DNA of 64,000 nt from Trueperaceae bacterium (GTDB lineage Bacteria > Deinococcota > Deinococci > Deinococcales > Trueperaceae). Positions 31,752 to 59,594 of the stretch are shown in pieces; the first letter of the stretch is position 1, and each line of letters starts with the position of its first letter. The translations under genes were made by a program, and so were the position numbers. Under the pieces are notes generated by a model. That model was not told the origin of the DNA. It ran no database searches and worked only from the letters and a program-made list of their open reading frames with translations. The stretch covers positions 3,424,001-3,488,000 of the forward strand of contig OZ243913.1 of the NCBI GenBank assembly GCA_965213705.1, written 5' to 3'.

Positions 31752-31753
31752 TA

Positions 31754-32641: not shown

Positions 32642-32643
32642 TA

Positions 32644-37259: not shown

Positions 37260-37568
37260 GTGACAACCAAGCTAACGAAAGAGCAGCGCGCGCTGGAGCA
37301 AGCTACCAAGCGGGCTGTGGCAGAGCGCATCAAAGGGTTACGTCGTGGCACAGGCCTGAATCAAGAAGAGTTCGCTTCGCAGGCGCAGCTGTACCGCTCT
37401 CATTACGGATTTGTGGAAAGCGAGCGGCGTGAGCCCAAGTTGGGAACGCTCATCAGAATTGCCAACGGTTTGGGAATAAGTCTCTCAGACCTGGTCGCGG
37501 TAAGTCCGGAGCAAGTTGAGAAGTATAAACAGGAGCTGTTAGAGGAGTTGAAAAAGTCAGAACCTTAA
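37260..37568 (+). CDS. XRE-family HTH regulator (RM C-protein-like)
   Basis: LNQEEFASQAQLYRSHYGFVESERREPKLGTLIRIANGL. Confidence 0.8.
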   Translation: MTTKLTKEQRALEQATKRAVAERIKGLRRGTGLNQEEFASQAQLYRSHYGFVESERREPKLGTLIRIANGLGISLSDLVAVSPEQVEKYKQELLEELKKSEP

Positions 37569-37713
37569 AGCTCTGAGCGTTCTGCGCAAGTCCACCACAC
37601 TCGCCAAGACCAATCCGTTGCCTGGCGATGGAACAGGGCCTTGGACGGTGTGTGGGTTGGAGAGAGTGCTGTTCATGGATACTAGGGTTATCTACGGACC
37701 AATAAACTGGCCT

Positions 37714-40434
37714 CTAACCGCTTTCTGCTGTGTAAGCAAAACGAGCTGCAAGTCCTGCTACGGTTGCATTTGTAGAGATGGAATCATGAGGAATAAGTAG
37801 GTAAGCCCACGGCTTGGTGCCGTGCTCCTCAGCATGTGCGCTCGCATGTACACACCAAGCTGACGCCGCCGCCGCTTTTTGCAAAACTTCATCATTTGTC
37901 ATCTGGTCGGCACGTTTGGGTTCACATAGATAATGCGTAGTAGCTGTTTCGACCACAAAGTCCGGTTCATAGGAACTATCCTGACGGTAGTAAATCTGCA
38001 GTTGGGTACGTGCGGGCTTGAACCACTTTTGCACGCTCATATCATCCTCGAGCAACACCGCAAAACGCCGTTCCGAGTCCGAATCAAATTTCTGCACCGG
38101 GTATAGTGACTTGGCGAAGCCGCCAAACAGCATGTTTCTTATGTCCGCCCGGTTTTGAATGGTTGCTCGGAAGTCGCTTATAGCCACACCTTCAGGTGCG
38201 TTGAAGCTTGTCTCGTCGAGCGTTAGGAACCCACGGCTGACTTGCGCTTCGTAGCCCGTCGCCTGTTGCCAAAAATGTTCCTGCATCTGTGCGTGGATAA
38301 GCTCGGCCAGCCGCTGTTCGTGGTATTGCAACACGTTGCGCACATCGTCAGGATCATGAAGATACGACTGAAGGTACCCGACGACCTGACCTGCCAGCTT
38401 GTAAAGCAATTCGGCGTTGTTCTCGTAGGACACATCGTCGTAGTCAATGAGACGCCGCACGATATAGTTTTCCGGGCGTTCCTCCCCTGCAACGGGACTA
38501 CTCTCTAAGCGCTCCCGTTCGTGCGTGCGCAGGTGCTGAATCAGAATGTCTTGAGAAACAGGCTGAAGTCTAAACCCAAGCTCGAGGTCGAAGTCTCGAA
38601 ATCCCGAGGTCACTTCCCCTGTTGGCACCACGATGATCCTGGGGATGTCGATGGTTCGCTCGACGACAAGATTGGTTACCTGCGCAATGACCTCCTCGAA
38701 GTTCGGCGTTTCGACCACATCCAAAGTGCCCTGGACGGGCAGCATTTCTTCCTTGACCGCCGCGATAATCTGCAATCTGACTTCCGGCATTTGTAAATCC
38801 TCGGCGCGAGGCAGCCGCGTGAATCTGCGCTGAATCACATCTAGCGTGGTACGGGCAACCTGGCGCGCTTCAGGCGTGTGAAAGGGTGATGCTATCTCGG
38901 ACCTGGGAGGAGCTAAAACTGTTGCTGTGCCCGTGGAACGAACGTCCGACGCCAAGGGCGTCGCTTGAGCACCGGTGGGTTCCGCGAACGCCGCGCCCAA
39001 CATCGACGGTACGGTAACAACTTGTCGACGCTCTTCTGGAATATCTCGCCCAATGACGACGCCCGTGCGGATAATCGAATCGGGGTTGTTGGCCTCGTCC
39101 ACGATTTGCTGAAAGCGGTCGTGGGCGACGATGGTGAGGCGGTCCACGGCGGATACCCCCACCTTGCGTCCGTAGGGCAAGCGCAAGCCGCGGCCAATCG
39201 ACTGCTCGACGAGCGTTCGGGAGTTCGCGGCGCGCAAAGGAACTATAGTGTAAAGGTTGGTTACGTCCCAACCCTCTTTAAGCATGTTGACATGTACTAC
39301 GATTTCCGTCGGCTCGTCGGGGTGCTCGACCGCCATAAGCCGCTCGATGGTCTCATCTTTCTCTTTGCCACGCTGATTGGAGTGAACTGTGATCACGCGA
39401 TTTTTGTAACGGCCCCCGTAAAAATCGTCTTCCTGAATCGTGGCAACGAGGTCGCTCGCGTGGTCCGTGTCTTGCGCCACGACCAACATAAAAGGCTTCA
39501 CCCTACCTACACCGTTCTACCGCGCATAGGTCTCGAGTTCGACCTTGGTATTCTCATGGACGATTACCGCGTCCTCGAGCTTGAGCCGTTCCAACTGCGC
39601 GTCGGAGTAGGTGCGCGGGTCGAAGTTCTCTCGCGTTGCCACAGCGGGTTCTTTGACGAAGCCGTCCTCTAAAGCCTTAAACAGTGGGTAGCTATAAATC
39701 ACGTTTCTGAACGGTGTCGAGTTACTGCCCGTTTCGACCTGCGGGGTGGCGGTAAGCTCGAGCCCCAGAATCGGCTTGAGGTCGTTGATGGCCCGCACCC
39801 CGGCGCTGGCGCGGTAGCGGTGCGACTCATCCATAAGCATCACCAGGTCATCCAGGCCCGCCAAGTAGTCGAAGTAGCTCTGTCCGATGTACTCCGACAA
39901 GCGCCGGATGCGCGAAGTCGCCCCACCGCGCACGTCGCTGTTGAGTTTCGAGATGTTGAAGATGTTGATATGCACATCGCTGAAAAGCGCCTGCTCGCGC
40001 ACGCCCCGCCCCGACTCGTAGTTGTCGCCTGTAATAAGCGTCGGCGGGTTGGTCGAGAACTCGGCGATTCCTTGGAACACGTACTTGGCTGTGTTGGGCG
40101 TAAAGTCGGCGATGAGTTTGTTGTAGATGGTTAGGTTGGGGGCCAGTACAAAAAAGTGCTTAATGCTGTGCTGCAAATAAAGGTAGCTGATAAACGCGCC
40201 CATCAGTCGGGTTTTGCCCACACCCGTCGCCAGCGCAAAACATAGAGAGGGAAAGTTACGCTCGAAGTCTTCTACCGACGGGAACTCGGACCGGATAACG
40301 TTGAGCGCTTCCGTCAAGTCGATAGTTTTGTCCAAACGCACAATTTCCATTACGCGGTCAAGGATTTCCAACGACTCGCGCTGCGGCGGACGCAGGCTGA
40401 GCCGCCCGCTGAGGGTGTTGACAATCCGGTTCAC
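37714..40434 (-). pseudogene. res: Type III restriction helicase-nuclease Res, split by one in-frame TAG (39517-39519)
   Basis: ATGVGKT, DESH, TATP, MLKEGWD, IGRGLR and YEPDF...EPK; both halves in the same frame. Confidence 0.85.
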
Positions 40435-42188
40435 GCCTTGCTCGCTGAAAAGAGCGTGGGTTGAGCAGATTCGGGTTCGTTTTCCAAGTCTGGCTCGGCG
40501 AGCACCTCCGGTTCCGGTGGGGGCGCGGGCTCCAAGTTTTCGACCTGCAAGCTGTAGTCGTCCTTGCCGAACTCGCAGCGGCCCAACACCGCGTTGGGAA
40601 TCTTCTTGAGCGTCAGGTTGTCAAAAGCGTTCGCGCTCGCCCGGAAGGCCGCGCAACAAATCAGCAGTGAGCGCCCCGGTCCAACCTCGTCGCTGAGCTG
40701 CGCCAATTGCTCGCGGGACAGCGTCTGCGTGGTCACGTAGATAAAATCCTGCTCGGTGGACTTGCCGTGCTGCCAGTACACCGTTTCGGACGGCGCGTAG
40801 CGAAAGCCCTCGTGCTTGCACATTGCCTCGGCCAGCATTTCGGCGTTGTATTCGCGGCTGATGATCCAGTTGCCCCACTTGTCCTTTTCGAGCAGCGACG
40901 GCGCGAGTTTGTAGTAACGAAAGCCGCCGCCGCCTTTCCACTTGACATCTTTGGTGACTCCACCCTCGTCAGTACCATCAACTACTTGCTTGAGACGCGG
41001 AACGATGTGAGTATGGGCATGTTCGCCAAGCTCAACCATAATCCAACGGCGACCCATCTTTTGAGCCACTGCGCCTGTTGTACCCGAACCAGCAAAAGAA
41101 TCAATAATTATGTCTCCTTCATTGGATGCCAAATAAAGGATGCGTTCAATAAGCTTTTCTGGCTTTGGGGTAGTAAATGGATCACCGGGATTAAATTTCT
41201 TAACCTCTTGCGCTGCAATTCGGTTTTCTCCAACTTCGCTGTAATGCCAAGTTGTCATCGCTACAACACCGTTGTCTTGAAGTTCTGATAAGAAACGCTT
41301 TATGGTTGGCTTGCTACTTCCATTTTTACCAAAGTGGATTCTGTTGTCCAGAATCAAGTCGTCATATGATGACTTGATGTAGGACCATGCTCTACCTTTT
41401 GCTGGCAGAACCTTTCTTCCCGAAGGTGTCACTATCTCGTAAATATTGACGCTTTCACCCGTACGTGAATATTGTTTACCTCGTTGTCCAGAGGCCAAGC
41501 TCAAAGTGAAGTTGTCTGGATACCAGGGACCTCGGCCGTACCAGTTTCCGTCTTTGTCGATCCCATCAAACTCATCTGAATGTTTGTATGTTGAGTTTTG
41601 CTTTGCTGTTCGGGGTAATCTTTTGGGTCGCCAAACTTCTTTGTTTTTTGCATACACCAAAATATGATCATGGCTGTCAGATAACCAAGTGGCGTTACTT
41701 TGAGGTGATGACTTTTTCTGCCAAACGACGTTTGACACAAAATTGCTACGACCAAATACTTCGTCACAAAGAACCTTAAGATAGTGTGCCTCGTTATCGT
41801 CGATACTTATCCAGATAGAACCGTCATTGGATAACCAGATAGAACCGTCATTGGATAAAAGGTGTCTCAGAAGCTCCAACCGCGGTCTTATCAAAGATAG
41901 CCATAAAGAATGCTCTACACCATCGTCATACTGAGCAAATGCCGACCCCGTGTTATAAGGCGGGTCAATAAATACGCACTTAACCTTACCCGTAAAATCC
42001 TGTTCCAACGCCTTGAGCGCCAGCAGATTGTCCCCGTGAATCAACATATTGTCGAAGATGTCGTCTTCACTCACGCGGTGTTTGGCGTGGTAGCTCTTGT
42101 CGGGGTCGTGCAGCAGGATGCGGGGCTCTAGCTGCGGGCGTTTTTCCTTGCCAATCCAGGTGAGTTCCAGTTTAGTTCTTTTGCTCAT
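40431..42188 (-). CDS. mod: Type III DNA adenine methyltransferase Mod
   Basis: MSKRTKLELTWIGK start; GDNL, IDPPYNTG, TPKPE and DSFAGSGTT; overlaps the res start. Confidence 0.9.
   Translation of the reverse strand: MSKRTKLELTWIGKEKRPQLEPRILLHDPDKSYHAKHRVSEDDIFDNMLIHGDNLLALKALEQDFTGKVKCVFIDPPYNTGSAFAQYDDGVEHSLWLSLIRPRLELLRHLLSNDGSIWLSNDGSIWISIDDNEAHYLKVLCDEVFGRSNFVSNVVWQKKSSPQSNATWLSDSHDHILVYAKNKEVWRPKRLPRTAKQNSTYKHSDEFDGIDKDGNWYGRGPWYPDNFTLSLASGQRGKQYSRTGESVNIYEIVTPSGRKVLPAKGRAWSYIKSSYDDLILDNRIHFGKNGSSKPTIKRFLSELQDNGVVAMTTWHYSEVGENRIAAQEVKKFNPGDPFTTPKPEKLIERILYLASNEGDIIIDSFAGSGTTGAVAQKMGRRWIMVELGEHAHTHIVPRLKQVVDGTDEGGVTKDVKWKGGGGFRYYKLAPSLLEKDKWGNWIISREYNAEMLAEAMCKHEGFRYAPSETVYWQHGKSTEQDFIYVTTQTLSREQLAQLSDEVGPGRSLLICCAAFRASANAFDNLTLKKIPNAVLGRCEFGKDDYSLQVENLEPAPPPEPEVLAEPDLENEPESAQPTLFSASKA
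41811..41858. repeat. Exact 24-bp tandem duplication inside mod (LSNDGSIW x2)
   Basis: CCAGATAGAACCGTCATTGGATAA twice. Confidence 0.95.
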
Positions 42189-43514
42189 GTCTCCCTTAAT
42201 TCTTGTGTACGGTCGTCGGCGCTTTGCAACGGCAGCGATGAGTTTCCGTTTTGCTATCGTATTTTGGCAGATTGCCACAGCTCTGACAAACAAGCAAACG
42301 GGCCAAACTCACCGTTCTTGTGCCGAAGTCTTCCACGTCGTCATCCGACACGCTGGCATTGTTTGGGTTGAAATGCGCGCCAACCTGGTTGCGAATGAAA
42401 GCGAGTTCTTTTATGGCCTCGAAATATTCTTTGAGAGCCACGCGCTCAACGGTGCCGTCCGGCTGAGGCCGCTCAATTTCAGCCTTGCTTGCGAAGCTAG
42501 CGGTGGAACTTAGCAACTCGCCTAGCGTGTAGTCGTTGTTGGGTTTTCTCTCCAGCTTCAATCTATGGTCTATCGTCAAATGGTCGAGAAGGGCTTCCAA
42601 AAGTATCCCGGCTTTGGCTGCGACCACTTGGCGGTCAAAAGGTAGACTTTGCAAAGCTTGCTCGAGTTCTTCCACAGCAGGTTTACTCTTGCTCGTAGTA
42701 ATGCCACGGTTGAGCGACCACTTGTTTAGTTGAATCAGGTCGATACCCGCAGAAATTTTTGACTGTCGGTGGTAATCGAGCCACACGCGGTTGTGAGTGG
42801 TAATGATAATTTGACCGAAACGCTCGCTTTCCTCTTCGATAAGCTCGAGAATTCGCCGCAGGTGCGGCGCGTCCACGGAGGTAAACACGTCGTCCAGAAT
42901 GATGATTGCGTTGCCGCCGGTAGCGCGGTGGGCGATGGCGAGCCAAAAGCAGAACCCGAGCGTGTCAAGGTGGGATTCGCTGAAATAGGCTTGGGGAGGT
43001 ATGTCGGTGTACGTCCCGAAGGTCGCCGACTGTTTTAACGAAGCGCGTCTTTCCTCGTAAAGGGCAAGGCCGGAAAACTCGACCGGCTCGCCCGGGTGAA
43101 TCGCGTTGTAGAGGCGTTTGCACTCGTCGGCCACAGCGTCCAGAATGGCTTGGGTGAAGGCGTGCCGTTTCGCCCTGACGAGGGCGTGAGTTTTCTCCAG
43201 ATGCTTGAGAATGATGTCATTCTCGACGACTTCTTGCTCGTTTTCCTGAATCTTGTTCCAGTTGACGCTTAAGGCGTTGTAAAGGTGCAAGTGCTGAGAT
43301 TTGCTTTCCACGAGTGCAGAGAGTTCGTTGCAGCAAGAGCGAATATGTTGGGCGTATGAGGCGGCTTGGTTCAGTGTTGCCGGGATGCCGTCTTCGCTTG
43401 CTCGGACGGAGTTTACAAAAATCAGGTGCGGTCGTAGCGTCGTCGCAACTGTTCTTGCCAATAGGTCGGCGACTTGCTGAGCGCTCTCGAGAAGGTTGTG
43501 TTGGGCGCGCTCTA

Positions 43515-44368
43515 GAGGGTGTTATGAACTCAATCGCTAAACTAAAGAATGACAAGGAAAGGTTATCCGAGTGATGTCGGCGATGAAGAATGGGCTTTTG
43601 TAGCACCGTACTTGAGCTTAATCAGAGAAGACGCCCCACAACGAAGTTATGACCTACGAGAGGTGTTTGATGCTTTGAGATGGATGGTTCGCTCAGGCTC
43701 ACCTTGGCGCTATTTACCTGGTGACTTCCCACCTTGGGAAGCGGTATATCAGCAAAGCCAAAGGTGGTTAAAAGCAGGCGTGTTCGAGGAGATGACCCAC
43801 GACCTACGAAGCCTGCTGAGACGGCTGAAAGGACGAGGAGAAAACCCAACAGCGACGGTGTTTGATGGACGCACCTTACAAAGTACGCCTGAGAGTGGCG
43901 AACGTGCGGGCTATGACGGACACAAGCGTAAGAAAGGCTCTAAAGTCCATCTGGCAGTCGATACCTTGGGTCTACTCTTAGCCCTTGTCGTTACACCTGC
44001 AAACGAACAAGAACGCCATCAGGTTGAAGCGCTTGCCGAGCAAGTTCAAACCATAACTGGAGAATCCGTCGAGGTTGCGTTTGTAGACCAGGGCTACACA
44101 GGTGACGACGCAGCCGAGGCGGCTAAAAGCCAAGGCATTCGGCTCTTCGTTGTTAAACACGAAGAAGCTAAGAAAGGCTTCGTTTTGCTACCCAGACGCT
44201 GGGTCGTAGAGCGTTCCTTTGCCTGGACATCCCGACTCAGGCGCTTAGCCCGTGACTATGAACGACTGCCTGAAACCCTTGCTGGGCTGCATTTCTTAGC
44301 TTTCTCTATGCTCATGCTTAAACGCTTAGCCCCTTTTTTAACTCTTCCGGCTAGTTCATAACACGCTC
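43515..44368 (+). mobile_element. Intact IS5-family (IS1031-like) element
   Basis: 16-bp TIRs GAGGGTGTTATGAACT / AGTTCATAACACGCTC, flanked by TA on both sides. Confidence 0.95.
43549..44361 (+). CDS. IS5-family transposase
   Basis: YPSD, VDTLG, VDQGY and [11 protein letters not shown] motifs. Confidence 0.95.
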
Positions 44369-45347
44369 TAAGCTGGTGCGGGCGTGGTCCCGGGTGCGTT
44401 CCGCAGCAGTAAAGTCGTCGCTTAACCGCTGCGACTCCTCCATTTGCCTTAGGCGCTCATCAATCTCGCGGCGCAAACCATCGGCACTGACGGACTGGTC
44501 ACAAATTGAGCAGGTGTCAAACTCCCTGGGCAAGGCGATGAACGCCTTGACCTGATTTAACAACCGGGTTAACTCGAGGGAAGCATCCTCGCCGGTTGCA
44601 GCGAGCTGTGCGAGCGCCGACTCCAACTCCTTGACCCGCATTTCGCCTTGGTGAAGGTTTTCTCGGGCTATTGTTACGGCGTCTTCTGCCACCCCAAGCT
44701 CTGTGAACGCGGCTTTTAGCACGTTGAGCCGCTCGAGCTCGAGCTTCAAAACCGAGGTGTCGGCGCTCGCCCGTTCCTGCGCCCAAGCCCTTGCGTTCGC
44801 TCCAGGACTGCCCTCGGCTTGCCACAACCTGTCTAGGCTTTCTTCGGCCCCTTGTTTGACGCGGATAGCTTCAGCGAGCCTGTCATTGGCGCTCCGAGCC
44901 GCCCTTGCAAGTGTAGCTTCGCACCGCTCTATTGCGGCTACATTGATAAAGCGGCTTATTTCTTTGTACCGGTCGGCAGGTCGCGCCTCGACAAGGCGCA
45001 AAAGCTGGCTCCGCCGCAGAATAAGGGCCGCAGGCGGGGTACCGGGTCCGGTGGCGACAGGCCTAGTACGGTTAAGCGTGCCGGTCCAGGTATCCTTGTC
45101 GAACCTTATCTCAATGTTGACGTCGCCGTAATCTTTTCCGAGGGCGGGTAAGTGGCTGCGATTGCTCGAGCCGCGCTCGTCGAGCGAACCTGCCTGTTGG
45201 TTGCAAATCATGTCGATGGCATCGATGATGCTCGATTTGCCCGTGCCGTTCTCGCCGAACAACATGACAACCGGTTTCTTATCAAAATTGATTTCTGAAC
45301 GAGTGGTGGCTCCACGAAAGGCTTCTAAGTGAATACTGCGAATGCGT

Positions 45348-45530
45348 TTATTCACTGCCAACCTCATCAAGGGCGAGTTCGGCGTAAAGCCGCCAATCTT
45401 CTTCTTTGAGCCTTCCGGCTGCAAGTTGCTCGCGAAATTCGTCTACCCTACCTTCCGAAATGAGGTTATTCTCCTTCAAGGCTGAGGCTATAATTTCGGC
45501 TAGCGCGTCGGCTGGATTTTGTTCGGGCAC
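45348..45530 (-). CDS. 60-aa acidic helical protein coupled to the ATPase
   Basis: GGGGAG RBS; stop overlaps the ATPase GTG. Confidence 0.65.
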   Translation of the reverse strand: MPEQNPADALAEIIASALKENNLISEGRVDEFREQLAAGRLKEEDWRLYAELALDEVGSE

Positions 45531-45539
45531 ATTCTCCCC

Positions 45540-48365
45540 TTAAGACACAATCCATCTAACTAGAAAGAGTGATTCTACCTTATGCTCGAGCTGTAGTTGC
45601 CGCTCTAGCTGTGAAATTAGAGAATCGCGTTGCTGCTCGACCTCGTCCTGGGCGTTATATAGTTCGCGGCGCTTGCGGTTACGGCTTTGCTCCAAACTAC
45701 GCAGCGTCTTCTGCGCTTCAAGTTTCTCGGCAAGGGTGACGACTGCCTTCGCATGCTTCTTTGCTTCTCTAATTTGCCGGTCTATGTCTTTGATTTCCTG
45801 CTCGAGGCCGAACTTTAAGTCTTCGGCCCAGCGGTCGAGTTTGGTTTCTTCCTCTTCGAAATAACTTGCGTTGCGAGCATTAACCTCGGCGAGGCAGCGT
45901 TGGAACTCAGCAGCACGCACGTCGGCGAGTTGAATGGGGGCTTTGGTGAGTGAAACCTGCGTCTCCGAGGCAGCTACACTGAAAAGGCGCTGACACTGTT
46001 CTTGGTCGAGTGGCTGACCCGCATCGGTAAGGGCTGCAAAAACGAGAAACTCCTCCGCCTGAACTGAATTCACAGTGAGCTTACTCAGCTCTAGCCAACC
46101 GCTCTGCTCGACCAACGACTCGAGAATGGCAATGCGGGTGGGGTGGGCGGAGTATGCGAAGGTTAGATCTGCCGTTCCGAGCGGTCTGTTGAGTGCCTGG
46201 GCCACGATTTTCTGTGCCAGGGGATGCTCCAGCCGGTAGAACACGGCGTTCATCGCCTCAGCCGTTTTCCAGTCAAAGTGATAAGTTGCGTGCTGCGGGG
46301 AATCGTAGGTAAATGCAGGCGTGTTTGGAACGAATGCGGCCTGACCTTTGAGTTCATTTCTGGTAAGTTCTAAAAGCCAGCGTTGGCGCTCGGATAAGGT
46401 TGCCTGTGCCTTATCCTTATGAATTTTGAGGCGATCGTGAACCTCTTCATCAAAGTGTTCAAACAGAACCTGTCGAGTTTGGTCCATACGGGTTTGAATC
46501 GTTTCTTCAAGTTCACTTTGAAGCGTATCGAACGCGGCTTGGATCTCACCTGCCGTACGACAGGTTTGATAGGCGCTAGCTATCCGTTTTTCTAGGTCGA
46601 CTCCAGATTCAAGCGCACCCAGCACTTCATCACTTGCCCCGAACACACCATCAAACAGTTTGAATTTTTCGGAAAGAAGCTCGAACACCCGCTGGTCGGC
46701 GGCGTTACGTCTATTAAGGAAGTTAACCACCACCACGTCGTGTTGTTGCCCGTAGCGGTGACAGCGTCCGATGCGCTGCTCAATGCGCTGTGGGTTCCAG
46801 GGTAGGTCATAGTTCACCACAAGCGAACAGAACTGAAGGTTGACACCTTCCGCCGCCGACTCGGTTGCGATGAGGAGAGTAGCGCGATCACGGAACTCTT
46901 CTACGATTGCGGCCTTCATATCAGCAGAACGTGACCCTGACAATTGGGCCGAGTTCTGGTGCCGCTCTGCATACGACTCGTAGATTTGTTTCGAGGTGAG
47001 ATCGTTGTTTGAGCCGTTCATAAGGACGATCTCACCTTGGTAGCCATGCTCGCTAAGGTAGTTGAACAGGTACTGCTGGGTGCGTCGTGACTCCGTGAAA
47101 ATGACGGCCTTGCGAGAAGCGCCGAGTACTCGGATTCGTTCAAACGCCGTACCTAAGACTTCCAAAAGTGCTGCTCCCTTAGCATTATGGCTGATCTTTT
47201 CGGCAAGCTCAGCGTAACGTTTTAGGTTTGAAAGCTCGTTTTGAAGCAACTCTCGCTCGGGCGGGCTCATTGGCTCGGGCGACTCGTCCCATTCCTCCAG
47301 AAGTTCATCAAGGGCTTCAAAATCGTCATCAAGCGCATCCTGCAGGCGCTGCTGCTCCCCTTCTTTCGTTTCCAACCGAGTGACGAGCCGGCGCAGTGTA
47401 CCCGCAATAGCATAGGTGGATGACGCCAAAAGTTTCCTCAGCACGAGGGTCATGAGCTGGCGCTGGCTGGCAGGAAGCGCAATTAGAACGTCCTTTTGCA
47501 AATAATCAGATACAAGTTGGTAAAGCGTATGCTCCTCATCAGTGGGCAAAAAATTTTGCGTAATTGAAGTGCGCTGCGTGAAACGCACGTATTCGAGCAC
47601 CTGCTGGCGCAGCGTGCGCCGACAGATTGGCTCAAGCCGCGCCTTAAGCACTGCATTACGCTTTCGTTCGTTATCAACTCGTACAAACTGTTCCCGGAAA
47701 GAGGTGATGTCTCCGAATACATGCGGGTCAATGACGCTCACTAAACCGTAGAGCTCGAGCAGTGAATTTTGTAAGGGCGTGGCGGTGAGCAACAATTTGT
47801 TGGCGTGGGAGGTCGCTTCCGCAATCGCCTTGGCGAGCTTGTTGTCTGACCTATAAACATTTCTCATGCGGTGAGCCTCGTCGATAACAACGAGATCCCA
47901 CTTTATCTTTTTTATTTCTGCCGCTTTCGCCTTGACAAAGTGGTAGGAGCAAATAACCACTTTGCCTTCTTGTTCGAACGGGTTATTCACACCTTCACGC
48001 TTACACTGGTTGAACGACTTGGCCTCCAGAATAACTGAGGGTAGTGCAAACTTATCAGCGAGTTCCTGCTGCCACTGTTTTCGCAACGTAGCCGGGAGCA
48101 CGAGTAGGATTGCGCGTTTGCGCTCGGCCCAGCGTTGGGCCAAGACTATACCTGCCTCGATTGTCTTGCCAAGGCCAACCTCGTCCGCCAAGATGACGCC
48201 CTTTGAGAAAGGTGAACGTGAGGCGAATAGGGCAGCATCAACTTGGTGGGGATTGAGATCAACTTTAGCGCTTGCAATAGAGCGGGACAACCCACTCATG
48301 GTGCCACGAGCACTCTGGAGCGTTAAGGCTTGTGCCCAGTAAAGACTGTGGTAGTGCGTGCTCAT
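45540..48365 (-). CDS. SNF2-family helicase
   Basis: ADEVGLGKT, DEAH, TATP, EGVNLQ and WNPQRIEQRIGR; C-terminal coiled coil. Confidence 0.9.
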   Translation of the reverse strand: MSTHYHSLYWAQALTLQSARGTMSGLSRSIASAKVDLNPHQVDAALFASRSPFSKGVILADEVGLGKTIEAGIVLAQRWAERKRAILLVLPATLRKQWQQELADKFALPSVILEAKSFNQCKREGVNNPFEQEGKVVICSYHFVKAKAAEIKKIKWDLVVIDEAHRMRNVYRSDNKLAKAIAEATSHANKLLLTATPLQNSLLELYGLVSVIDPHVFGDITSFREQFVRVDNERKRNAVLKARLEPICRRTLRQQVLEYVRFTQRTSITQNFLPTDEEHTLYQLVSDYLQKDVLIALPASQRQLMTLVLRKLLASSTYAIAGTLRRLVTRLETKEGEQQRLQDALDDDFEALDELLEEWDESPEPMSPPERELLQNELSNLKRYAELAEKISHNAKGAALLEVLGTAFERIRVLGASRKAVIFTESRRTQQYLFNYLSEHGYQGEIVLMNGSNNDLTSKQIYESYAERHQNSAQLSGSRSADMKAAIVEEFRDRATLLIATESAAEGVNLQFCSLVVNYDLPWNPQRIEQRIGRCHRYGQQHDVVVVNFLNRRNAADQRVFELLSEKFKLFDGVFGASDEVLGALESGVDLEKRIASAYQTCRTAGEIQAAFDTLQSELEETIQTRMDQTRQVLFEHFDEEVHDRLKIHKDKAQATLSERQRWLLELTRNELKGQAAFVPNTPAFTYDSPQHATYHFDWKTAEAMNAVFYRLEHPLAQKIVAQALNRPLGTADLTFAYSAHPTRIAILESLVEQSGWLELSKLTVNSVQAEEFLVFAALTDAGQPLDQEQCQRLFSVAASETQVSLTKAPIQLADVRAAEFQRCLAEVNARNASYFEEEETKLDRWAEDLKFGLEQEIKDIDRQIREAKKHAKAVVTLAEKLEAQKTLRSLEQSRNRKRRELYNAQDEVEQQRDSLISQLERQLQLEHKVESLFLVRWIVS

Positions 48366-50311
48366 CAATCCGCAGCTTCACCAAGGACCAACACGTCCTT
48401 CTCGACATACGCCCGAAAGTCGTCTACTGCTGTAAAGAACATATAACCCGCCTGATTTGCAGCTTCCTCAGTCTCTTGAGGCTCCCCTAACAAAAGTGTC
48501 ACCGGCTGGCTGAGGCCCTCCTGCAATCCGTTCGGCCAGGCGAGGTCAAGAACAGCCTTAAGGTTTCCCTGCTCATCAACTAGCTCGTACATGAACTCAC
48601 CCTCGGGCAACCCTTGCTCGGTTACCCAGGTATTGACATCCAGTAGTTGTTGTTCTTCCTCCTGGGTGTCCACATTGCCAGGAATGATTGTGATGGGCTC
48701 TCCCCGCACTGGTGCAACGTCGCGCTGCGGAACAGAGCCGTGATAAAGCTTATCCAGAAACGCGTTTGCCGCCTCGGCCAAAAGCTCTTTTCGAGCCGCC
48801 AGGAAGTCTGAATAGTTCTCAAGTCGCCACAGTTCACGATCCATCGGAATCCAGTGGGACTCGAGCACGCCAGGATGTTTGTTGGCATACTCGGCCAGAT
48901 ATTCCTCGGGTAGGCGGTCGGACACCTTCAGGTTGGTGTCTTGCGTCAGGAAGGTGAAGTTAGCGAGCGTGTTCACTTCGGCCCTGCCATAACCCTGCTT
49001 GTAGAGCTGCGCTTTGGGGAAGATGTGATGCACTTGCAGGTTGCTTAACCTGCCGAGTAGATGGTTGGTAAGCTCGACGCCCGTTTCCCAGTCGCGTGAG
49101 TGCCACACACGGGTCATCATGTAAAGCAGCGGGTAGAAGCGTGCGCCCATGCTCCAGCCCCCTAAGTCACTTGGGTTGACGCGTAGGTCGCCACGGTTGC
49201 GCCTTAGCCCCTCGATGAGTCGATCGAGTGCACCTTCGTTGTCCTCGATCAGGTTCAAATCCTTATTTAAGACGCTCTCGGTCGAGCCTGCATAACGGCC
49301 CCATAGGAAGGTGTGGACGTACCAGTAGAGGAGCCGGTCGCGCTCGGTAGCATCGCTCAGGTCGCCACCGCGCTGCTGCCAGTAGCGGACCAACAACGGA
49401 AACGAATAGCGGCTGCCCAAAACGCGGTCGTGGTCCAGCCCCAACCGTGAGGCGATCAGGTTGAGGAAGGTGTCAATCCCCTTCTCGGCGCGCTGCAGAC
49501 CTTCTTTGAAGGTTGGAGTATCCACATCCTTGAGGGCGGTGAACAGGGCTTCTCCAGTGAGGAGCGTGTTGATGTTGCGCAACAGCCAGTCGAGTTTGAA
49601 GTGGTACCCGGCACGGCCCCATTTCTCGAGCCTGACTTTCATCTCATCCCGAGCGTCAGGCCACTCGGCGCAAATCTTAGCTAGAGCGAGGTCGCCCTTG
49701 GAGAGCTTGGTGCCGCCGCTGTTTACCACATTGAAGATGTCGACCACTACGTCAACGGTCTTGTCTTCGCCGGTGACCTTCTCGATGTGCATATCTATGT
49801 CTTTGATACCGTGTACGTGGTTTACACGCTCAATGTAGGTGCTGAACTTGGGTTGCAGGTCTGGGTTGCCGTAGAGCCGCTGCATCACCCCCGCCATGCC
49901 CTCTTGCATAAGTGCTGTAACGCCCACCCACAGCGGGTTATCCTTCATCTTAAGCGGCGCGTAGAACTCGAAGTTCTCATCCTCTAAGTTGAAGTAGAGG
50001 CCAGTAAATACGTCAGGGTTACCATCGAAGAACTTGGGTGGCTTGCCCCGCATCACCCCATATAAGCTCGTCATGCGCTGCTGCCCATCCAGGATCAGTT
50101 CGACCGAACCGGGCGTAAGCTGCCCGTCACCTCTCGAGGGTGCGCCCTCGGTCTTGGTGACCCATACGAGCAGGCTGCCTACTGGATAGCGCTGGTAGAG
50201 GGAGTGCATCAGCTTGCGAACCTGGTCGCGGTTCCACACGTAGCCGCGCTGGAATTCAGGCAGCGCCATCGCGCCGAGGTCAATCTGGTTGAGGATGGTG
50301 CTGATGTGCAT
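48365..50311 (-). CDS. GmrSD-like (DUF262 plus DUF1524/HNH) modification-dependent nuclease
   Basis: PEFQRGYVW, DGQQR, FNVVNSGG and HHIFP...NFTFL; extra C-terminal DLAWP domain. Confidence 0.8.
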   Translation of the reverse strand: MHISTILNQIDLGAMALPEFQRGYVWNRDQVRKLMHSLYQRYPVGSLLVWVTKTEGAPSRGDGQLTPGSVELILDGQQRMTSLYGVMRGKPPKFFDGNPDVFTGLYFNLEDENFEFYAPLKMKDNPLWVGVTALMQEGMAGVMQRLYGNPDLQPKFSTYIERVNHVHGIKDIDMHIEKVTGEDKTVDVVVDIFNVVNSGGTKLSKGDLALAKICAEWPDARDEMKVRLEKWGRAGYHFKLDWLLRNINTLLTGEALFTALKDVDTPTFKEGLQRAEKGIDTFLNLIASRLGLDHDRVLGSRYSFPLLVRYWQQRGGDLSDATERDRLLYWYVHTFLWGRYAGSTESVLNKDLNLIEDNEGALDRLIEGLRRNRGDLRVNPSDLGGWSMGARFYPLLYMMTRVWHSRDWETGVELTNHLLGRLSNLQVHHIFPKAQLYKQGYGRAEVNTLANFTFLTQDTNLKVSDRLPEEYLAEYANKHPGVLESHWIPMDRELWRLENYSDFLAARKELLAEAANAFLDKLYHGSVPQRDVAPVRGEPITIIPGNVDTQEEEQQLLDVNTWVTEQGLPEGEFMYELVDEQGNLKAVLDLAWPNGLQEGLSQPVTLLLGEPQETEEAANQAGYMFFTAVDDFRAYVEKDVLVLGEAAD

Positions 50312-51573: not shown

Positions 51574-53205
51574 TTAGGACTGCCAACCTCCGTCTCCCTC
51601 TACCATCTTTGGTTTCACTCTCATAGGCACAAGCTTTTGCTCCACACGCAAAGTCCATTCCTTGGGCGTCCCCACGTGTAGTAGACGGTGGACATGAACA
51701 ATCCAGGGATATAAAACATGTACTAGCTCGAGCCTAGTCTTACTCCAGTTAACCTGCGGCGTAATAGTTTCCGCAAACATCTCGCCTAACCGCTCTATAT
51801 CGTCATCCTGGTCTTTGCGCCCGCTAGCAGTAACGAGCAGCGTCGCCGCTTTGCGCGCGCTTAAAGCCTCTAATTCTATGAGGTAGGCGGGCAGGCAAGA
51901 TGGCTCCTGAATCACAGCAATCACCACGCCGACGTCGCGGTCCGGCCCAAGCATAAGTGTGATCTGGAAAATCTCTAGCGGCTTCACCAAACGTGTACTG
52001 AGTTCGTTTAGGTAAACAGCGAAATCATTGTAATAGCTTACCAACACGGGGTCATTTAACTTTAACTGCTCATCACTGCTGTCATTGGACTTCGACACTG
52101 CGCCAGGTGTCTCAAATTCTCCGGGACGCAAACTTCCTTCACGCCTTCCGCGCGTTAAACCTACCTTTTCGGTTTCATCTTTTGGGTTAACAACTATTTT
52201 AGGAACTTCTATAGCCTCTTCGTCCGATAGTTTGGGTTGCAGTCGGGTGGGCTTGGGGTCACTGAGAGGCGGCGCGGGATGTGGCAGCTTACGCGAAATC
52301 TTCTTTTTTGTAACCCCTGCCCCCGTTGTGTCGATCGTCACTGTCCCCTTCGGCCGCAAGTGAACAACCTTCTTACTATCCTGCGAGGCAATCGTGCGCT
52401 GTTTCAGCTGTCCTATAACCCCGTAGCTTATAAGCTGGACGGGTAAAGCTTCTACCAGGGTGATGGCAGTAATCTCGAGCACGAGCAGCGTCTGTTCATA
52501 CTTAATGCCTCTCAGTCGCCACGTGGACTGCAGCGGAGGCACTGCCTCGGCTGACCAAGCCTGCTTCTGTTGTGTCAAGGCGCGCGACGTATGCTCCCAG
52601 GCAGCTGCAAACCGGGGCAAACATAGTATGCGGGCGACTTGTCTAACAAACGTTTTGGTTAAGTAATTGCGCGGAACATCTTTGTGAAACCACAGCTCGA
52701 GTTCATGGCCGTCCACCTTGTAGCTGTGGACGATTTCCCTCACCGCGTTAGGCCTGAGCAAGACCTCGGCCAGCGCACGGTTGTGAGCGAAGCAGGCACG
52801 CACTAGCTCGGAGACGGGAACGACCATGCGTTCGCCTTCTGAAAGTTTAAATCCAAAACAATGTTCCAGATAGTTTGCGCGGTCAAAAAGTCGGTAGTGC
52901 TTAGCGCTGATAAGCTCTCGTGCTGAGCGCACCAATGTGTCTTCGACCAGTTTACTAACTTCGAAATCGTGACCAACAAAATCATTCTTGGGCTGACCGT
53001 CCTGGTACGCCTGCCCGAGCCGCAACATCGGTACAGAACCCCACGGTAACCGCACTTCTTGTGGAGAACCGTCGACTGCTTTAAAAGACGCCGTAAGGTG
53101 CCACTGCTTGGTGACTGCATCTTGTGTAGGACTTTGCAACCAGTACAAATACACCCGCTCTGCCTTAAGAAATGGAAAGGGGGCAAAGCGGACTTGCCTA
53201 GACAT
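51574..53205 (-). CDS. tnsE: Tn7 TnsE-like target selector
   Basis: Fifth gene after tnsD; PFPF..LYW..SP..PWGSVP N-terminus and PVSELVRACF, which resembles the TnsE clamp-binding motif. Confidence 0.7.
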   Translation of the reverse strand: MSRQVRFAPFPFLKAERVYLYWLQSPTQDAVTKQWHLTASFKAVDGSPQEVRLPWGSVPMLRLGQAYQDGQPKNDFVGHDFEVSKLVEDTLVRSARELISAKHYRLFDRANYLEHCFGFKLSEGERMVVPVSELVRACFAHNRALAEVLLRPNAVREIVHSYKVDGHELELWFHKDVPRNYLTKTFVRQVARILCLPRFAAAWEHTSRALTQQKQAWSAEAVPPLQSTWRLRGIKYEQTLLVLEITAITLVEALPVQLISYGVIGQLKQRTIASQDSKKVVHLRPKGTVTIDTTGAGVTKKKISRKLPHPAPPLSDPKPTRLQPKLSDEEAIEVPKIVVNPKDETEKVGLTRGRREGSLRPGEFETPGAVSKSNDSSDEQLKLNDPVLVSYYNDFAVYLNELSTRLVKPLEIFQITLMLGPDRDVGVVIAVIQEPSCLPAYLIELEALSARKAATLLVTASGRKDQDDDIERLGEMFAETITPQVNWSKTRLELVHVLYPWIVHVHRLLHVGTPKEWTLRVEQKLVPMRVKPKMVEGDGGWQS

Positions 53206-55078
53206 TGCTACGTTCCAGCGTCGGGACAACCAACTTAGCTAGGGCTTCGTTCAGGGCTTGCTGCACGTTGGGCAGTGCAACAAGATCGGGTCGAAGCCCT
53301 GCCATGCGCTCTAGCTGCCAACGCTTTGGACACTGTTTCTTTTGCCAGCCCCTGGCAGCCCAGCTGATGCGCCGTAGTGCAAAATCCTCTCTGGTTTCGA
53401 CGTTCACTCCTATAGCTTCAAGCGTTTTGGGTAATTTGCGCGCATGTTTTTGGATAAGTGCAACTTGGCCCAACTCACGTGCCAGCGATGTGACTGTCAA
53501 CCTAATCTGCTTGCCCTTGCCGCTACGCAAACGTTCAACAGCAGCATTCACCTGGAGTGATAAGTGCTCGTCCCGTTCCTGCCAATCAATGCGGTGATAG
53601 CGGCTGGCTTTGGTGTGAGCCGGATGCTTTTTTGCAAAGTCTCTGAGCCAGGTACGGTCGTGTCGGTAAAGCCGTGTATAGAGGTGTGGGGAGAGTGCCC
53701 TCAACTCAGTAGTGCCTGCACTAGGGTGAACCTGGTGTAGCGCTATCCACGCAGCTTGCATCTCTTCTCTTGTGGAATTTGAGGTTTCGACACTTCCGTC
53801 CACCTCCACCTTCATGCCCGCTTCATACCGCGTTACGGTGCGGGTTGTAACACCCAAACAGCGCGCCTTCTCCCGCAGTCCCATGCCAGCACATTTGTAC
53901 CTTGACAGTGTATCTTTCCACACAGGGCCGAAGTCAATCATTCGGTCAATCCGGTGACGGTCTTTTGCATCTCGGTCAGGTCCCGTGCGTTGGTAGGTGA
54001 ATCCGCATAGCAGACATTCAAAGGTGCCAACAGGTCGTCCTTTGTCTTTCGTGTGATGCACGACGATACTCTTAACTGTATCCTTCTGAAAATGATCACT
54101 GGTGCAGTTTAGACAGGGCCAGGGTTCGGCTCCGAAAAGTTCTTGTGGCGTATAGCTGAAAAAGTTCTGCGGGCTGTATTCCAGAAACCTCATAAGCAGA
54201 AGGTGACGCAGTGGATGGTGCGAAGACTTTGGATGGCGAACGATGCGGTGGAGCCAGGTGTGTTGTGTGGCCTCCGGCAAGGGGCACTCGAGCAACCCGA
54301 GAAGCTCGTCGCCGTAGAAGTTCCTGAAAGCTTCTATAAGCTTGCTCACCCGCACTCTACCTGCATAGGTCGCGTACCCCTTTTCCGCCAGCGCCCAACG
54401 GTACTTTTTTCGGAACTCTGTTAGGTCTACAGTCTTTATCGTCTGTCTGAGCAACCATGAGGCGTCTTTGGCGAGCCCCACGAGGAGGTTATGACTGCGT
54501 GGGTCAAACCGACTCGGGGAAAAGGCTTTCCTTTCGACAACCTCTCGCGCCGCCCAGAAAACGTGCCGGTTGCGCCGGTTGGAAGTTATTACCCGACTGT
54601 CTTGCAACACGACTTCATGAGTTGGACAAATGTTTATGCCAGGCAGTTGGTGCGCACGTCGCCAATAAGGTTCACCCAGCTTAAGAATGTCCTCTTCGGT
54701 GCAGTGAGGGCAGTGGCGAAGCCGCGCAGGTGTTTTGACAGAACTCGCCATGACGCCGCTGCTGAAATGAACGTAGTCGCTGCCCAACATTGCGGCCGCG
54801 AGTTTCTCTGCGTGCTCAGCTGCCATAAAAGGTCTATAAAAAGGCAGGAGAGTGTGGTTGTTGATAATGTCTCGGGCGCTGGCAAAAAGTCCGCTAGGCA
54901 CCGTGTCATGCACGTGCGCTAAATGGTTGGGTAGGTCCACGACTGCCAGAGCGTTACGACTCCCCAAAACGTTTAGCGTAAAGGTTTTAGCGTCTGGATA
55001 CCCTATCCGAAGGCTATAGCGTGCGCACAGGCTGTAGAAAAGCTCGTCAGGGTAGGGTATGGGGAAATTGTGCAACAC
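53198..55078 (-). CDS. tnsD: Tn7 TnsD (TniQ domain) target selector
   Basis: FPIPYPDELFYS, CPHC and WRRAHQLPG..CPTH Zn finger; 626 aa. Confidence 0.9.
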   Translation of the reverse strand: MLHNFPIPYPDELFYSLCARYSLRIGYPDAKTFTLNVLGSRNALAVVDLPNHLAHVHDTVPSGLFASARDIINNHTLLPFYRPFMAAEHAEKLAAAMLGSDYVHFSSGVMASSVKTPARLRHCPHCTEEDILKLGEPYWRRAHQLPGINICPTHEVVLQDSRVITSNRRNRHVFWAAREVVERKAFSPSRFDPRSHNLLVGLAKDASWLLRQTIKTVDLTEFRKKYRWALAEKGYATYAGRVRVSKLIEAFRNFYGDELLGLLECPLPEATQHTWLHRIVRHPKSSHHPLRHLLLMRFLEYSPQNFFSYTPQELFGAEPWPCLNCTSDHFQKDTVKSIVVHHTKDKGRPVGTFECLLCGFTYQRTGPDRDAKDRHRIDRMIDFGPVWKDTLSRYKCAGMGLREKARCLGVTTRTVTRYEAGMKVEVDGSVETSNSTREEMQAAWIALHQVHPSAGTTELRALSPHLYTRLYRHDRTWLRDFAKKHPAHTKASRYHRIDWQERDEHLSLQVNAAVERLRSGKGKQIRLTVTSLARELGQVALIQKHARKLPKTLEAIGVNVETREDFALRRISWAARGWQKKQCPKRWQLERMAGLRPDLVALPNVQQALNEALAKLVVPTLERSNV

Positions 55079-56586
55079 TAGGCGTCCTGGAACTCGCCTT
55101 TAGATGCAATGTAGCCTCCGGCTACGAGCGCATCATAGGTGGATATGTTTTCCTCACCGGCCTGCTCGGCGGCAAGAAGTAGGCCTGTCGTCCGACGAGC
55201 TTTCTTTTTTTGGCTTTTGCCGGTGACTCTTCCCGGCTGTTTTGGGTTGCCAGCTTCTGGTGGACTTGGTAGAGTACCTGCTTGACTCGCCCTTGGCTCG
55301 CTAAACTCTCGTTTTGGCTTTCGGTTGTTCATTTCTCGCATAAGCTCATTTAGCTCTTCTTGTGCGCCCGGTTTGTCGCTTCTAAAGGCGGCGAGCGCAG
55401 CTTGAGCAGGTGCAAAAATGGTGCTTGCCACTTCTATGATGAGGTCTAACGTAATTTTTTCGGTTTCGTTTTCTATCGCCTGCTGCTGCACGCCAATAAA
55501 AAGCTTGACAACCAAATCGGGGATGCCCACTGTTTCGTGATGAAAGCGACTGCTAATTTCTGGTGTCAGCTCAACCTTTTGAGCCGTATATTGGTAGTCC
55601 CAAAACGACTCCAGGAACTTGTCCCAAATTAAGTGGTCGCTTTCGGTCCTCGAGAAGGGTTTCCAGTGGAAGGGACGTGATGTGATATTTCGTCTGACCT
55701 GCCAAAACTCCTGCTCGAGAACTTCCTGCGCTCGCTCTGTCCCTACCATCAGCACGCCGCAGCCGCTGGTGTTGATAAGTTCGGTGAAAAAAGCTAACAT
55801 CTGCTTCGCGCCGCTCGACTTTACCAAGCTCAAATTTTGAATCTCGTCGATTACGATTAGTCCGATGTTGAATAGGCCAGCAATCCTGCCGACATCGGGT
55901 ATCATTTGGGGACCGGTACGCCCGCCAAAATCTTCGGCAAAGGTGGTGTTGCCAATAACGCGGTCAACCTCTAAAAAGAATTTGTCACACAAACCGCGTA
56001 TAGAACTGTTATGAGGACAGTCGAGCTTGAGCCACACAATCTGTGTAAATGGAAAGGTCTGTCCGCGGTACTGACTGTGGAAGATTGCTTGTGGGTAAAG
56101 AGCGAGTATTCGAGACAAGGCAATCGTTTTACCCAGCCCGCTCATGCCGCAAAGAAAAAAACTTCCTTTAAAGCCGCCCGGATGGTAGCGCATCTGGCCT
56201 GCCTTAGTGGCAACGAGCCTTTCTTTGAGCCTATCAACTTTTTCAGAAAGGTGATTCCAGTAGGTTTTGTCAGCAAAGTTGTTGCGGTCTATGTAGCTCA
56301 GGCGTAGCAACGTCGAGATTTCTGACTCGAGTGTGTAGTGGCGATGCAGCGGCACGAACATGCGCTCTAAGCCACGAACAAGCTGCACCCGCACTTCACT
56401 TGGATAATCTAAGGCTTCTTTTTTGAAGTTGGGGAAGTAAGCGATACGCTCCAAAACCTCTTTTTTTGACATAATAGCTGGTAGCGCTTCGATCAAGGGG
56501 TTACCCTCGTGCTCTTCGATAAGCACGTCTCGGTACGCCCCATCTTTGACTGTTCCATCAACAAATTTTGCCTTAAAATCACTCAT
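55078..56586 (-). CDS. tnsC: Tn7 TnsC AAA+ ATPase
   Basis: GNPLIEALP, GMSGLGKT, WLKLDCP and IDEIQ motifs. Confidence 0.92.
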   Translation of the reverse strand: MSDFKAKFVDGTVKDGAYRDVLIEEHEGNPLIEALPAIMSKKEVLERIAYFPNFKKEALDYPSEVRVQLVRGLERMFVPLHRHYTLESEISTLLRLSYIDRNNFADKTYWNHLSEKVDRLKERLVATKAGQMRYHPGGFKGSFFLCGMSGLGKTIALSRILALYPQAIFHSQYRGQTFPFTQIVWLKLDCPHNSSIRGLCDKFFLEVDRVIGNTTFAEDFGGRTGPQMIPDVGRIAGLFNIGLIVIDEIQNLSLVKSSGAKQMLAFFTELINTSGCGVLMVGTERAQEVLEQEFWQVRRNITSRPFHWKPFSRTESDHLIWDKFLESFWDYQYTAQKVELTPEISSRFHHETVGIPDLVVKLFIGVQQQAIENETEKITLDLIIEVASTIFAPAQAALAAFRSDKPGAQEELNELMREMNNRKPKREFSEPRASQAGTLPSPPEAGNPKQPGRVTGKSQKKKARRTTGLLLAAEQAGEENISTYDALVAGGYIASKGEFQDA

Positions 56587-58765: not shown

Positions 58766-59594
58766 TAGCAACCTCCGTTAAATTAGTACCTATAAGAGGC
58801 ACCGGTCGGGTTGGCTCAAAGGGTAGTGACATGTCAATAACCCACTGCCGCGTCGCAATCAAGTGTTTAGCCACCGACAAACACTGACCTGCGTGTAAGC
58901 CTAGTGCTTCGTCAAGGCGTACTGCTACCTGCGCCAAAGACGAGTGAGGCCTTTGCACTTCTGCCGACAACATTTCTGTGATGGTGAGTAACGTATTTGC
59001 CGATACACCGAGCCCGCGGCTGTCCCGGTGGGTGTGTACCTGCTGTACGTTCGCTGCAAGAGTCTTGTCGACTTCGTTTTCTGTAACGAGCTTAAATTCT
59101 TTTCCTTGCAATAGCCAGGCTTGACGCTCCAGTTCTAGCTTCTCAAGAGTTCGCAAGTCATCAAGATCTTTTTCGTATTTGACCGAGCGCGGAAAATCAT
59201 CCGTCCTATCGACAAAAACAGCTGTAACCAAAAAGTCAGTCGTGGGGACAGTAGGCAAGTTCCTTTCTTTGTAAATGTTGTAAGCCTCGGGATGCTTTAT
59301 GCCTAACTGTTCTGCAACATTTAAAGTAATGATTGTGGTGCCGTCAAGCAGCGGAAATTGCTCCCTAATATCTGTTATGGCTAACGACCACTCGAGAGTA
59401 TAGAAGTAGGCAAGCTCGAGTCGGCTCAAAAAATGATGGACACGACCAGTTTTCCAGCCTTTTATCCGTGTAGTAAGACCTTGCGAAGGTATATCTTTAG
59501 CTTGAATGTATGGAATATAAGACGAGCCAACGCCTTGGCCTCGTCCTTCCTTCACCCTCAATAAGACGTTCTGTAAATCAACTCCCCTTGCCAT
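58749..59594 (-). CDS. tnsA: Tn7 TnsA endonuclease
   Basis: EGRGQG, HHFLSRLE, DIREQFPL and TTDFL motifs. Confidence 0.93.
   Translation of the reverse strand: MARGVDLQNVLLRVKEGRGQGVGSSYIPYIQAKDIPSQGLTTRIKGWKTGRVHHFLSRLELAYFYTLEWSLAITDIREQFPLLDGTTIITLNVAEQLGIKHPEAYNIYKERNLPTVPTTDFLVTAVFVDRTDDFPRSVKYEKDLDDLRTLEKLELERQAWLLQGKEFKLVTENEVDKTLAANVQQVHTHRDSRGLGVSANTLLTITEMLSAEVQRPHSSLAQVAVRLDEALGLHAGQCLSVAKHLIATRQWVIDMSLPFEPTRPVPLIGTNLTEVANEPAA

Follow-up and report, generated by a model that had tools for sequence, protein, structure and literature searches.

A Rad50-like ATPase with a predicted HEPN tail and a small partner form a candidate two-gene defence module, interrupted by an IS5-family element in a Trueperaceae bacterium

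The window analysed here is the whole 64,000-nucleotide stretch of contig OZ243913.1 (positions 3,424,001 to 3,488,000; assembly GCA_965213705.1) from a Trueperaceae bacterium. On its minus strand, the window carries a gene for a large ATPase with a zinc hook and a predicted HEPN-fold tail, directly preceded by a gene for a helical protein of 60 amino acids (aa). The unit is these two genes rather than one. The two-gene module is read here, with a probability of about 0.63, as a defence that would sense DNA, switch with ATP and cut RNA to stop the infected cell. The ATPase gene in the window is a real but broken member of a large family, a pseudogene copy split by an insertion sequence (IS). 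The features of the module are listed below.

44371..45355, minus strand: 5' half of the ATPase-HEPN gene (328 codons), with the N-lobe of the ABC head, the coiled coil and the zinc hook
42196..43512, minus strand: 3' half of the ATPase-HEPN gene (438 codons and the stop), with the return coil, the C-lobe, the predicted HEPN domain and the Cys tail
45233-45256, minus strand: Walker A, GENGTGKS
44501-44512, minus strand: zinc hook, CSIC
42970-42984, minus strand: ABC signature, FSESH
42889-42900, minus strand: Walker B, ILDD
42793-42795, minus strand: His of the H-loop
42295..42678, minus strand: predicted HEPN-fold domain, with a conserved Arg (42631-42633), a Glu (42595-42597) and RNQVGAH (42373-42393)
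42199..42294, minus strand: C-terminal CxxC...CxC tail, with CQSC (42277-42288) and CRC (42226-42234)
45348..45530, minus strand: gene for the 60-aa helical partner, with a GTG start, a GGGGAG ribosome-binding site and a stop that overlaps the ATPase start
43513-43514 and 44369-44370: target-site TA duplication (2 bp)

The ATPase gene is interrupted by an IS5-family element of 854 bp (43515-44368, plus strand) with 18-nt inverted arms and a TA on either side. The transposase of the element (43549-44361, plus strand) matches NF033580 with 200 bits against a cut-off of 110. The source genome contains seven copies of the element, which are 100% identical to one another, and every one lies between TA and TA. 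This pattern fixes the ends of the element and the 2-bp duplication, and the insertion is probably recent. When 856 bp (the element and one TA) are removed, three of the six boundary choices give 767 codons with a single terminal stop, which reproduces the frame proposed in a preliminary description of this stretch made from the sequence alone. The remaining three choices are out of frame and contain 12-15 stops each. The repaired frame is not a chance product, because 114 of the 150 best matches in a homologue search are uninterrupted proteins of 730-820 aa that align over both gene halves.

In this search, the 3' half was compared with 1.84 billion cluster representatives. There are 1988 matches at E<=0.001, 1384 at 1e-10 and 351 at 1e-30; the 351 are clusters at 50% identity, found with the 3' half alone as query. 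Counts out of 114 refer throughout to the full-length homologues among the best 150 of the 1988 matches. In these homologues, Walker A, the signature (S-E/D-x-H), Walker B, the D-loop and the H-loop are near-invariant. The zinc hook is CPxC in 114/114 and CSxC, with Ser for Pro, in the window copy. Within the window protein, Walker A, CSIC, FSESH, ILDD, the H-loop, RNQVGAH, CQSC and CRC each lie where the preliminary description had placed them. The intact homologue P0002 is modelled at a pLDDT (score in the predicted local distance difference test) of 93.5 with an ABC head, a long coiled coil tipped by the hook, and a helical domain at the C-terminus. The top Foldseek matches of this full model are Smc, Rad50, cohesin/condensin and Lamassu LmuB (E 5e-14 to 1e-11), and the ATPase head as modelled is Rad50/SMC-like.

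The last 166 residues of the window protein, folded with 145 homologues, give a model with a pLDDT of 92.9. In a wide structure search with this model, the best match is the HEPN protein 2hsb (Z 10.6, root-mean-square deviation 2.8, 118 residues). HEPN is named in the top row and in four of the top ten titles, and the other six of the top ten presumably contain HEPN as well. One of these six structures, 5yep, is HEPN-containing according to bioRxiv 10.1101/2024.01.29.577857. In the ESM Atlas, the tail matches unnamed clusters only (0.91, 0.90 and one 0.85 cluster with 13% AAA_13). The RNxVGxH motif is strongly conserved (R 112/114, N 110/114, G 114/114, H 112/114), and a Glu is present upstream of it in 111/114 homologues. 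HEPN RNases are defined by Rx4-6H, a polar residue after the R and an upstream acidic residue (PMC3710099), and the family has all of these sequence features. The tail is, by prediction, a HEPN fold. This agrees with the HEPN-like tail and the conserved R and H of the preliminary description; neither a non-HEPN fold nor a loss of R and H in homologues was found.

The Cys tail that follows the predicted HEPN domain is likely a zinc ribbon. Its first Cys is present in 114/114 homologues and the other three in 98/114. The added zinc ribbon that had been suggested is thus present and common as a Cys tail but, to judge by these sequences, optional in the family.

The small gene, which ends across the ATPase start, went unnoticed in the preliminary description. 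With the window 60-aa protein as the sole query, 54 of 280 candidate upstream frames match at E<1e-3. After one profile round, the partner is found in 68/68 loci that retain the ATPase N-terminus (79 loci, with 11 that have no ATPase N-terminus set aside), where it always stops no more than about 25 nt from the start of the ATPase gene. A single-gene unit, as previously assumed, is not compatible with this count. The partner has a G-x5-DW motif whose Gly, Asp and Trp hardly vary. Among 364 genomes of the phylum, the partner occurs in six, always adjoining the ATPase, and the ATPase occurs in seven; the seventh ATPase match (G172) is without the first 200 model positions. The partner has no match at E<1 in 40 SbcC, LmuB, RloC-like and PDC-S06 loci. 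Comparison with Pfam, NCBIfam, PADLOC and PDB sequences gives nothing consistent, the best being SHOCT-like in 6/63 members, and the ESM Atlas gives unnamed clusters only (0.87 and below).

The predicted binding site of the small protein is the head-proximal coiled coil of the ATPase. In the complex prediction for the pair from locus L006, the score is 0.66, compared with 0.00 for the best of three controls. The runs share at least 96% of their contacts, and the partner has a pLDDT of at least 75. The mark applied to the complex score is reached by 116 of 157 solved pairs and by 2 of 215 mismatched pairs. The confident predicted contacts are with ATPase residues 136-156 and 433-456, which form both coil strands beside the head. 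Interface columns are better conserved than other columns, both in the coil (0.51 vs 0.31) and in the partner (0.56 vs 0.33), and the near-invariant Trp of the partner packs against a near-invariant Leu in the predicted complex. In Mre11-Rad50, the Mre11 helix-loop-helix binds Rad50 at the head-proximal coil (PMC7752040). The long LmuC is likewise predicted near the heads and is related to the SbcD C-terminus (PMC12663957). No origin of the small protein from SbcD or LmuC is detected by sequence. The hhalign probability is below 1% against five plus five genes upstream of LmuB matches and against a 22-row SbcD-tail set, of which about 7 rows are not SbcD, and there is no PADLOC LmuC match among 63 small-protein members.

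The proposed mechanism draws on RloC and Lamassu. By analogy with these systems, the ATPase would dimerise, close its hook and stay silent. The trigger would be free DNA ends or stalled forks, arising from phage replication or from cuts by a neighbouring type III system. ATP turnover would follow, and two HEPN domains would form one composite active site. HEPN domains need to dimerise, and the RNases of this superfamily act independently of metal. The composite site would cut cellular RNA, with tRNA as a first guess, and the infected cell would be stopped. For the small protein, a role as a regulatory ATPase clamp is proposed: it would set the off state or couple the coil to the head, and would not plug the RNase site. 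The module would for the most part be a passenger between SNF2 and mod, exchangeable cargo with a backup role. In RloC, the hook and a DNA-dependent ATPase gate the RNase (PMC3458546), and RloC is activated by inducers of DNA breaks (PMC3874168). RNase activity and DNA-break sensing of the family are inferred by this analogy. Since changes in the hook activate GkaRloC, the Pro-to-Ser change in the window copy may, speculatively, have been costly before the IS arrived.

Several points weigh against the reading as a DNA-sensing, RNA-cutting defence. The tail model gives no Foldseek match at E<=0.001 (E>0.1), its Z of 10.6 is below the value of about 13 that helical bundles can reach by common arrangement, and no Pfam or PADLOC family matches it. 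This doubt over the HEPN fold is largely settled by the conservation of the R/N/G/H motif and the upstream Glu. The RloC triad is absent, and the choice of tRNA as substrate is drawn from analogy. The complex prediction used author-built alignments and one chain of each protein, not the dimer, and its score may owe something to solved Rad50-Mre11 complexes, since the predicted site is the Mre11 site. Folding by itself may account for the conservation of the head-proximal coil, which leaves the interface statistic without independence. The partner and the ATPase occur with no HEPN at L010 and L069, two loci that are either truncated copies or an effector-less form. Of the 54 loci that no contig end cuts, nine are broken or partial. 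The tight link with SNF2 and type III restriction-modification (RM) genes also fits an RM-dependent guard.

The neighbouring genes in the window are as follows.

48365..50311, minus strand: GmrSD-like (DUF262) gene, upstream cargo
45540..48368, minus strand: SNF2 helicase, DrmD-like, the usual upstream neighbour (NF038318, 716 bits, below the cut-off of 950)
40431..42188, minus strand: type III mod, carrying a tandem duplication of 24 nt, in frame, at about 41811-41858
37714..40434, minus strand: type III res, with an in-frame TAG at 39517-39519
51574..59594, minus strand: Tn7-like genes TnsA, TnsC and TnsD (Pfam), directly downstream of glmS (59779-61602)

The operon in the window comes after the Tn7-like genes and runs in the order GmrSD-like gene, SNF2, small gene, ATPase-HEPN gene, mod and res. 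Membership of the SNF2 gene in DISARM or BREX is rejected, as the NF038318 score is below the cut-off and the neighbours are type III mod and res instead. Across loci whose flank spans 3 kb or more, SNF2 is upstream in 37/43 and mod is downstream in 25/33; the loci were chosen by the ATPase alone, and related loci are not independent. Where both flanks are available, SNF2 and mod are both present in 23/30 loci, and res is present too in 22/30. Seven of the 30 are without Mod, and six are without both neighbours. Three Bacteroidota plasmid copies (L111-L113, in Hymenobacter and Fibrella) have the pair convergent with Mov34/ThiF, patatin and WYL genes and no RM genes. Other cargo often lies between the gene pair and mod or SNF2, and the SNF2-to-mod slot looks like a defence hotspot. 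In L003, L004, L006 and L041, a changing cargo of 0.3-4 kb lies between SNF2 and the small gene.

The association with RM loci noted in the preliminary description therefore stands in 23/30 loci, but guarding in the sense of PrrC is unproven. A PrrC-type guard is possible, though rather unlikely. Under this explanation, SNF2, Mod and Res would silence the RNase, which would fire when a phage anti-restriction protein disables them, and the small protein would be an adaptor. The flanks are what such a guard predicts, at 23/30 compared with an RM linkage of 8/73 for RloC (PMC2610378). The res, mod and ATPase genes are all damaged in the window, as expected if loss of the silencer demands loss of the toxin, but the order of these lesions is not readable. 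The loci without Mod or without both neighbours, with the intact plasmid copies among them, do not fit a guard, nor does the cargo that separates the pair from mod or SNF2. In a comparison of similarities across 25 loci, the ATPase-Mod correlation is 0.15 (rho; partial 0.01) and the SNF2-Mod correlation is 0.46. Because the ATPase tracks Mod poorly, exchangeable cargo fits better than a co-evolved RM subunit. In the same test, the values are 0.40 for the small protein and the ATPase, 0.35 for the small protein and SNF2, 0.39 for the small protein and Mod, and 0.30 for the ATPase and SNF2; by these values, the ATPase does not stand out as the closest tracker of the small protein.

An addiction module like a toxin-antitoxin pair is improbable. 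Here the labile antitoxin would be the small protein, with the pair serving mainly to stabilise a mobile island or to sense host shut-off, not DNA. The small gene is directly upstream with an overlapping stop and start, its product is slightly acidic (median net charge -2), it is never found without the ATPase, and the pair is carried on Tn7 and plasmids. All of this would suit an antitoxin. The confident contacts are nevertheless on the coil, and none is listed in the HEPN domain, where unlisted residues are uncertain. The near-invariant ATPase motifs and hook would be needless for a simple toxin, and the partner persists in the two loci that have no HEPN.

The family is like RloC in layout. 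Both have a single chain of about 770-790 aa with an ABC head split by a coil with a CxxC hook and with a C-terminal HEPN-type RNase, which in the family is a predicted one. The window gene has a GTG start, as is reported for many rloC genes. The split ABC motifs and the hook expected of RloC are present, and the hook Cys residues are conserved in 114/114. RloC is further described as having an Arg-x3-Glu-x36-52-His triad (often Ser-His), RM linkage in 8/73 and a length of 658-897 aa (PMC2610378). The controls used here are AAA_13 (PF13166) matches and their relatives, some labelled 'wobble nucleotide-excising tRNase' by JGI; GkaRloC itself is not among them. The loose triad pattern is present in 113/113 controls and 12/112 family members, and the strict triad is present in 110/113 controls and 0/112 family members. 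The reverse holds for R[NDH]x3-5H, which occurs in 1/113 controls and 110/112 family members. Unlike RloC, the family has the canonical RNxVGxH with a conserved Arg that precedes the Glu by 12 residues, a Gly at -4 of the Glu in 108/108 rows scored, an E-to-H spacing of 69-88, a Cys tail and a constant small partner. RloC is also a single gene that is rarely RM-linked, whereas the family has a partner in 68/68 loci and SNF2 with Mod in 23/30.

Profile and tree comparisons give the same division. AAA_13 scores 14-53 bits in the family, with no match extending into the tail, and 429-550 bits in the RloC-like controls. The hhalign match between the family and the RloC-like set has a probability of 99.2 at 17% identity and runs from the hook to the H-loop only, although the profile of the controls is a narrow one. 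In a rough head tree, the family is apart from the RloC-like and PDC-S06 rows; the central branch has support of 63/6 and its placement is unresolved. In this tree, P0121, P0111 and L136 are mis-trimmed, and 8 of 11 LmuB and weak-LmuB rows were dropped. Because the RloC triad is missing in register, the family is not RloC, and the RloC identity implied by the preliminary description is set aside in favour of a separate, unnamed family, as far as sequence can define it. That the protein is a diverged ordinary RloC, a wobble-excising anticodon nuclease beside an incidental small gene, is very improbable: the layout and size agree, the profile match is high and 3/16 members scanned weakly pass the AAA_13 cut-off (38-53 bits), but the match leaves the nuclease outside, the triad is lost, the tree sets the family apart and the small gene is constant.

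The other known systems share parts of this architecture. PrrC, which acts with EcoprrI, has the same logic of an ABC ATPase with a HEPN anticodon nuclease and a gene within an RM locus. PrrC is 341-416 aa, with no coil or hook in its description, and is always type Ic-linked (PMC2610378), whereas the family protein in the window is 767 aa with a hook and its link to SNF2-type III loci is not universal. Fusions of ABC and HEPN in RM loci are already known (PMC3710099). Lamassu LmuABC/ABC-3C is similar in architecture only, with an SbcC-like hook ATPase and a small gene directly upstream, and LmuB/LmuC sense DNA ends (PMC12663957). The best PADLOC match of the family is the LmuB profile (E 1e-17 to 2e-21); true LmuB matches reach 464 bits. 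In contrast with Lamassu, there is no separate LmuA effector, since the predicted effector is fused to the ATPase C-terminus and the upstream gene is SNF2 or variable cargo. The partner is about 60 aa, compared with about 170-190 aa for the genes upstream of LmuB matches, and has no profile similarity to them. SbcCD/Mre11-Rad50 shares the head fold, the hook and a small gene before the ATPase whose product is predicted at the head-proximal coil, but the family is without the Mre11/SbcD nuclease and has a shorter coil and a fused HEPN-like domain. PDC-S06, an ABC-HEPN-like PADLOC candidate of which two members were compared, is similar in size and in its ATPase with a C-terminal His-motif domain. 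The family matches its head motif weakly (best E 2.5e-11, compared with 1e-57 to 1e-72 for its own members), and PDC-S06 groups with the RloC-like rows in the head tree and has no small-partner match. No description of this gene pair was found in the literature; the ABC classification of Krishnan et al. 2020 or the supplement of PMC3710099 might list the family. In their accessible portions, PMC12839542, PMC10853773 and bioRxiv 10.1101/2024.01.29.577857 concern other systems.

A wider evolutionary reading is offered tentatively and is itself doubtful. The family may be a third independent detect-and-kill offshoot of SbcCD/Rad50, next to RloC and Lamassu, in which Mre11/SbcD would have been pared to, or replaced by, a 60-aa coiled-coil clamp, with a canonical HEPN RNase joined to the ATPase. 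It would then be a dedicated second line of SNF2-type III loci that fires on phage DNA ends made by restriction.

Most copies of the module are whole, and 45/54 loci uncut by a contig end are intact. Among the nine broken loci are two without HEPN, one SNF2 fusion without the head at its N-terminus, and cases of frameshift or stop; faulty assembly may explain some of them. In L005 (6632-11152), a 1506-aa SNF2-ATPase-HEPN fusion begins from about model position 200, with neither the small gene nor Walker A, and is either a deletion or a misassembly. In L010 (8873-10774) and L069 (9986-11833), the small gene and the HEPN-less ATPase have no SNF2 or RM neighbours. As to carriage by phages, 35 viral loci give weak matches only (best E 5e-11), most of them over the Walker A region, and there is no match in 50,697 phage records.

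In the window, the module lies in a Tn7-borne locus. A 730-aa and a 551-aa gene are TnsB/TnsE-like by position only. Short repeats containing CAACTTTATTTT are present between tnsA and glmS and may be transposase-binding sites. The res TAG at 39517-39519 sits where two homologues have Glu, and the whole RM locus is most likely decaying, with the module dead in this genome. Contigs from two runs of one sample are equal to 37500-43540 and 44341-48186 with 0 differences; this is probably the source sample and hence not independent of the assembly. The res TAG and the mod duplication are both in these contigs. An assembly error behind the IS, the res stop or the mod duplication is rejected on this evidence, with the same dependence on one sample. 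No joint that skips the IS, as an IS-free allele would give, is present in the contigs of the two runs.

A lower-depth contig of 4892 bp matches the SNF2 start and short pieces of the ATPase (42932-43129 and 48121-48186). These pieces are about 820 bp closer together in the contig than in the window. Read depth along the window climbs above 48159. A diverged cassette free of the IS, in another strain or element, is perhaps behind this. Elsewhere in the window, a 158-aa fragment (32619-33095) resembles the start of a Cap4/LmuA-like nuclease, with IS remnants around it, and is possibly a broken Lamassu or Avs-type gene. Transposase-like fragments, judged from their translations, lie in and around the Tn7 cargo (50408-51431, 31595-32600, 33672-34043 and 24395-24961).

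Current annotation calls members of this family just 'AAA family ATPase' or a transporter subunit, and no defence model matches over the effector or the partner. The large gene tested alone would miss a partner that is present in every testable locus, and with the window copy a pseudogene, the intact homologues are the test material. If the reading as a DNA-sensing, RNA-cutting defence is true, the pair would offer a two-protein minimum in which to study the switching of a fused RNase by a Rad50-like hook and head, and the effect on this switching of a protein located where Mre11 binds the coil. The module would also be a backup for type III RM loci, comparable to PrrC for type I.

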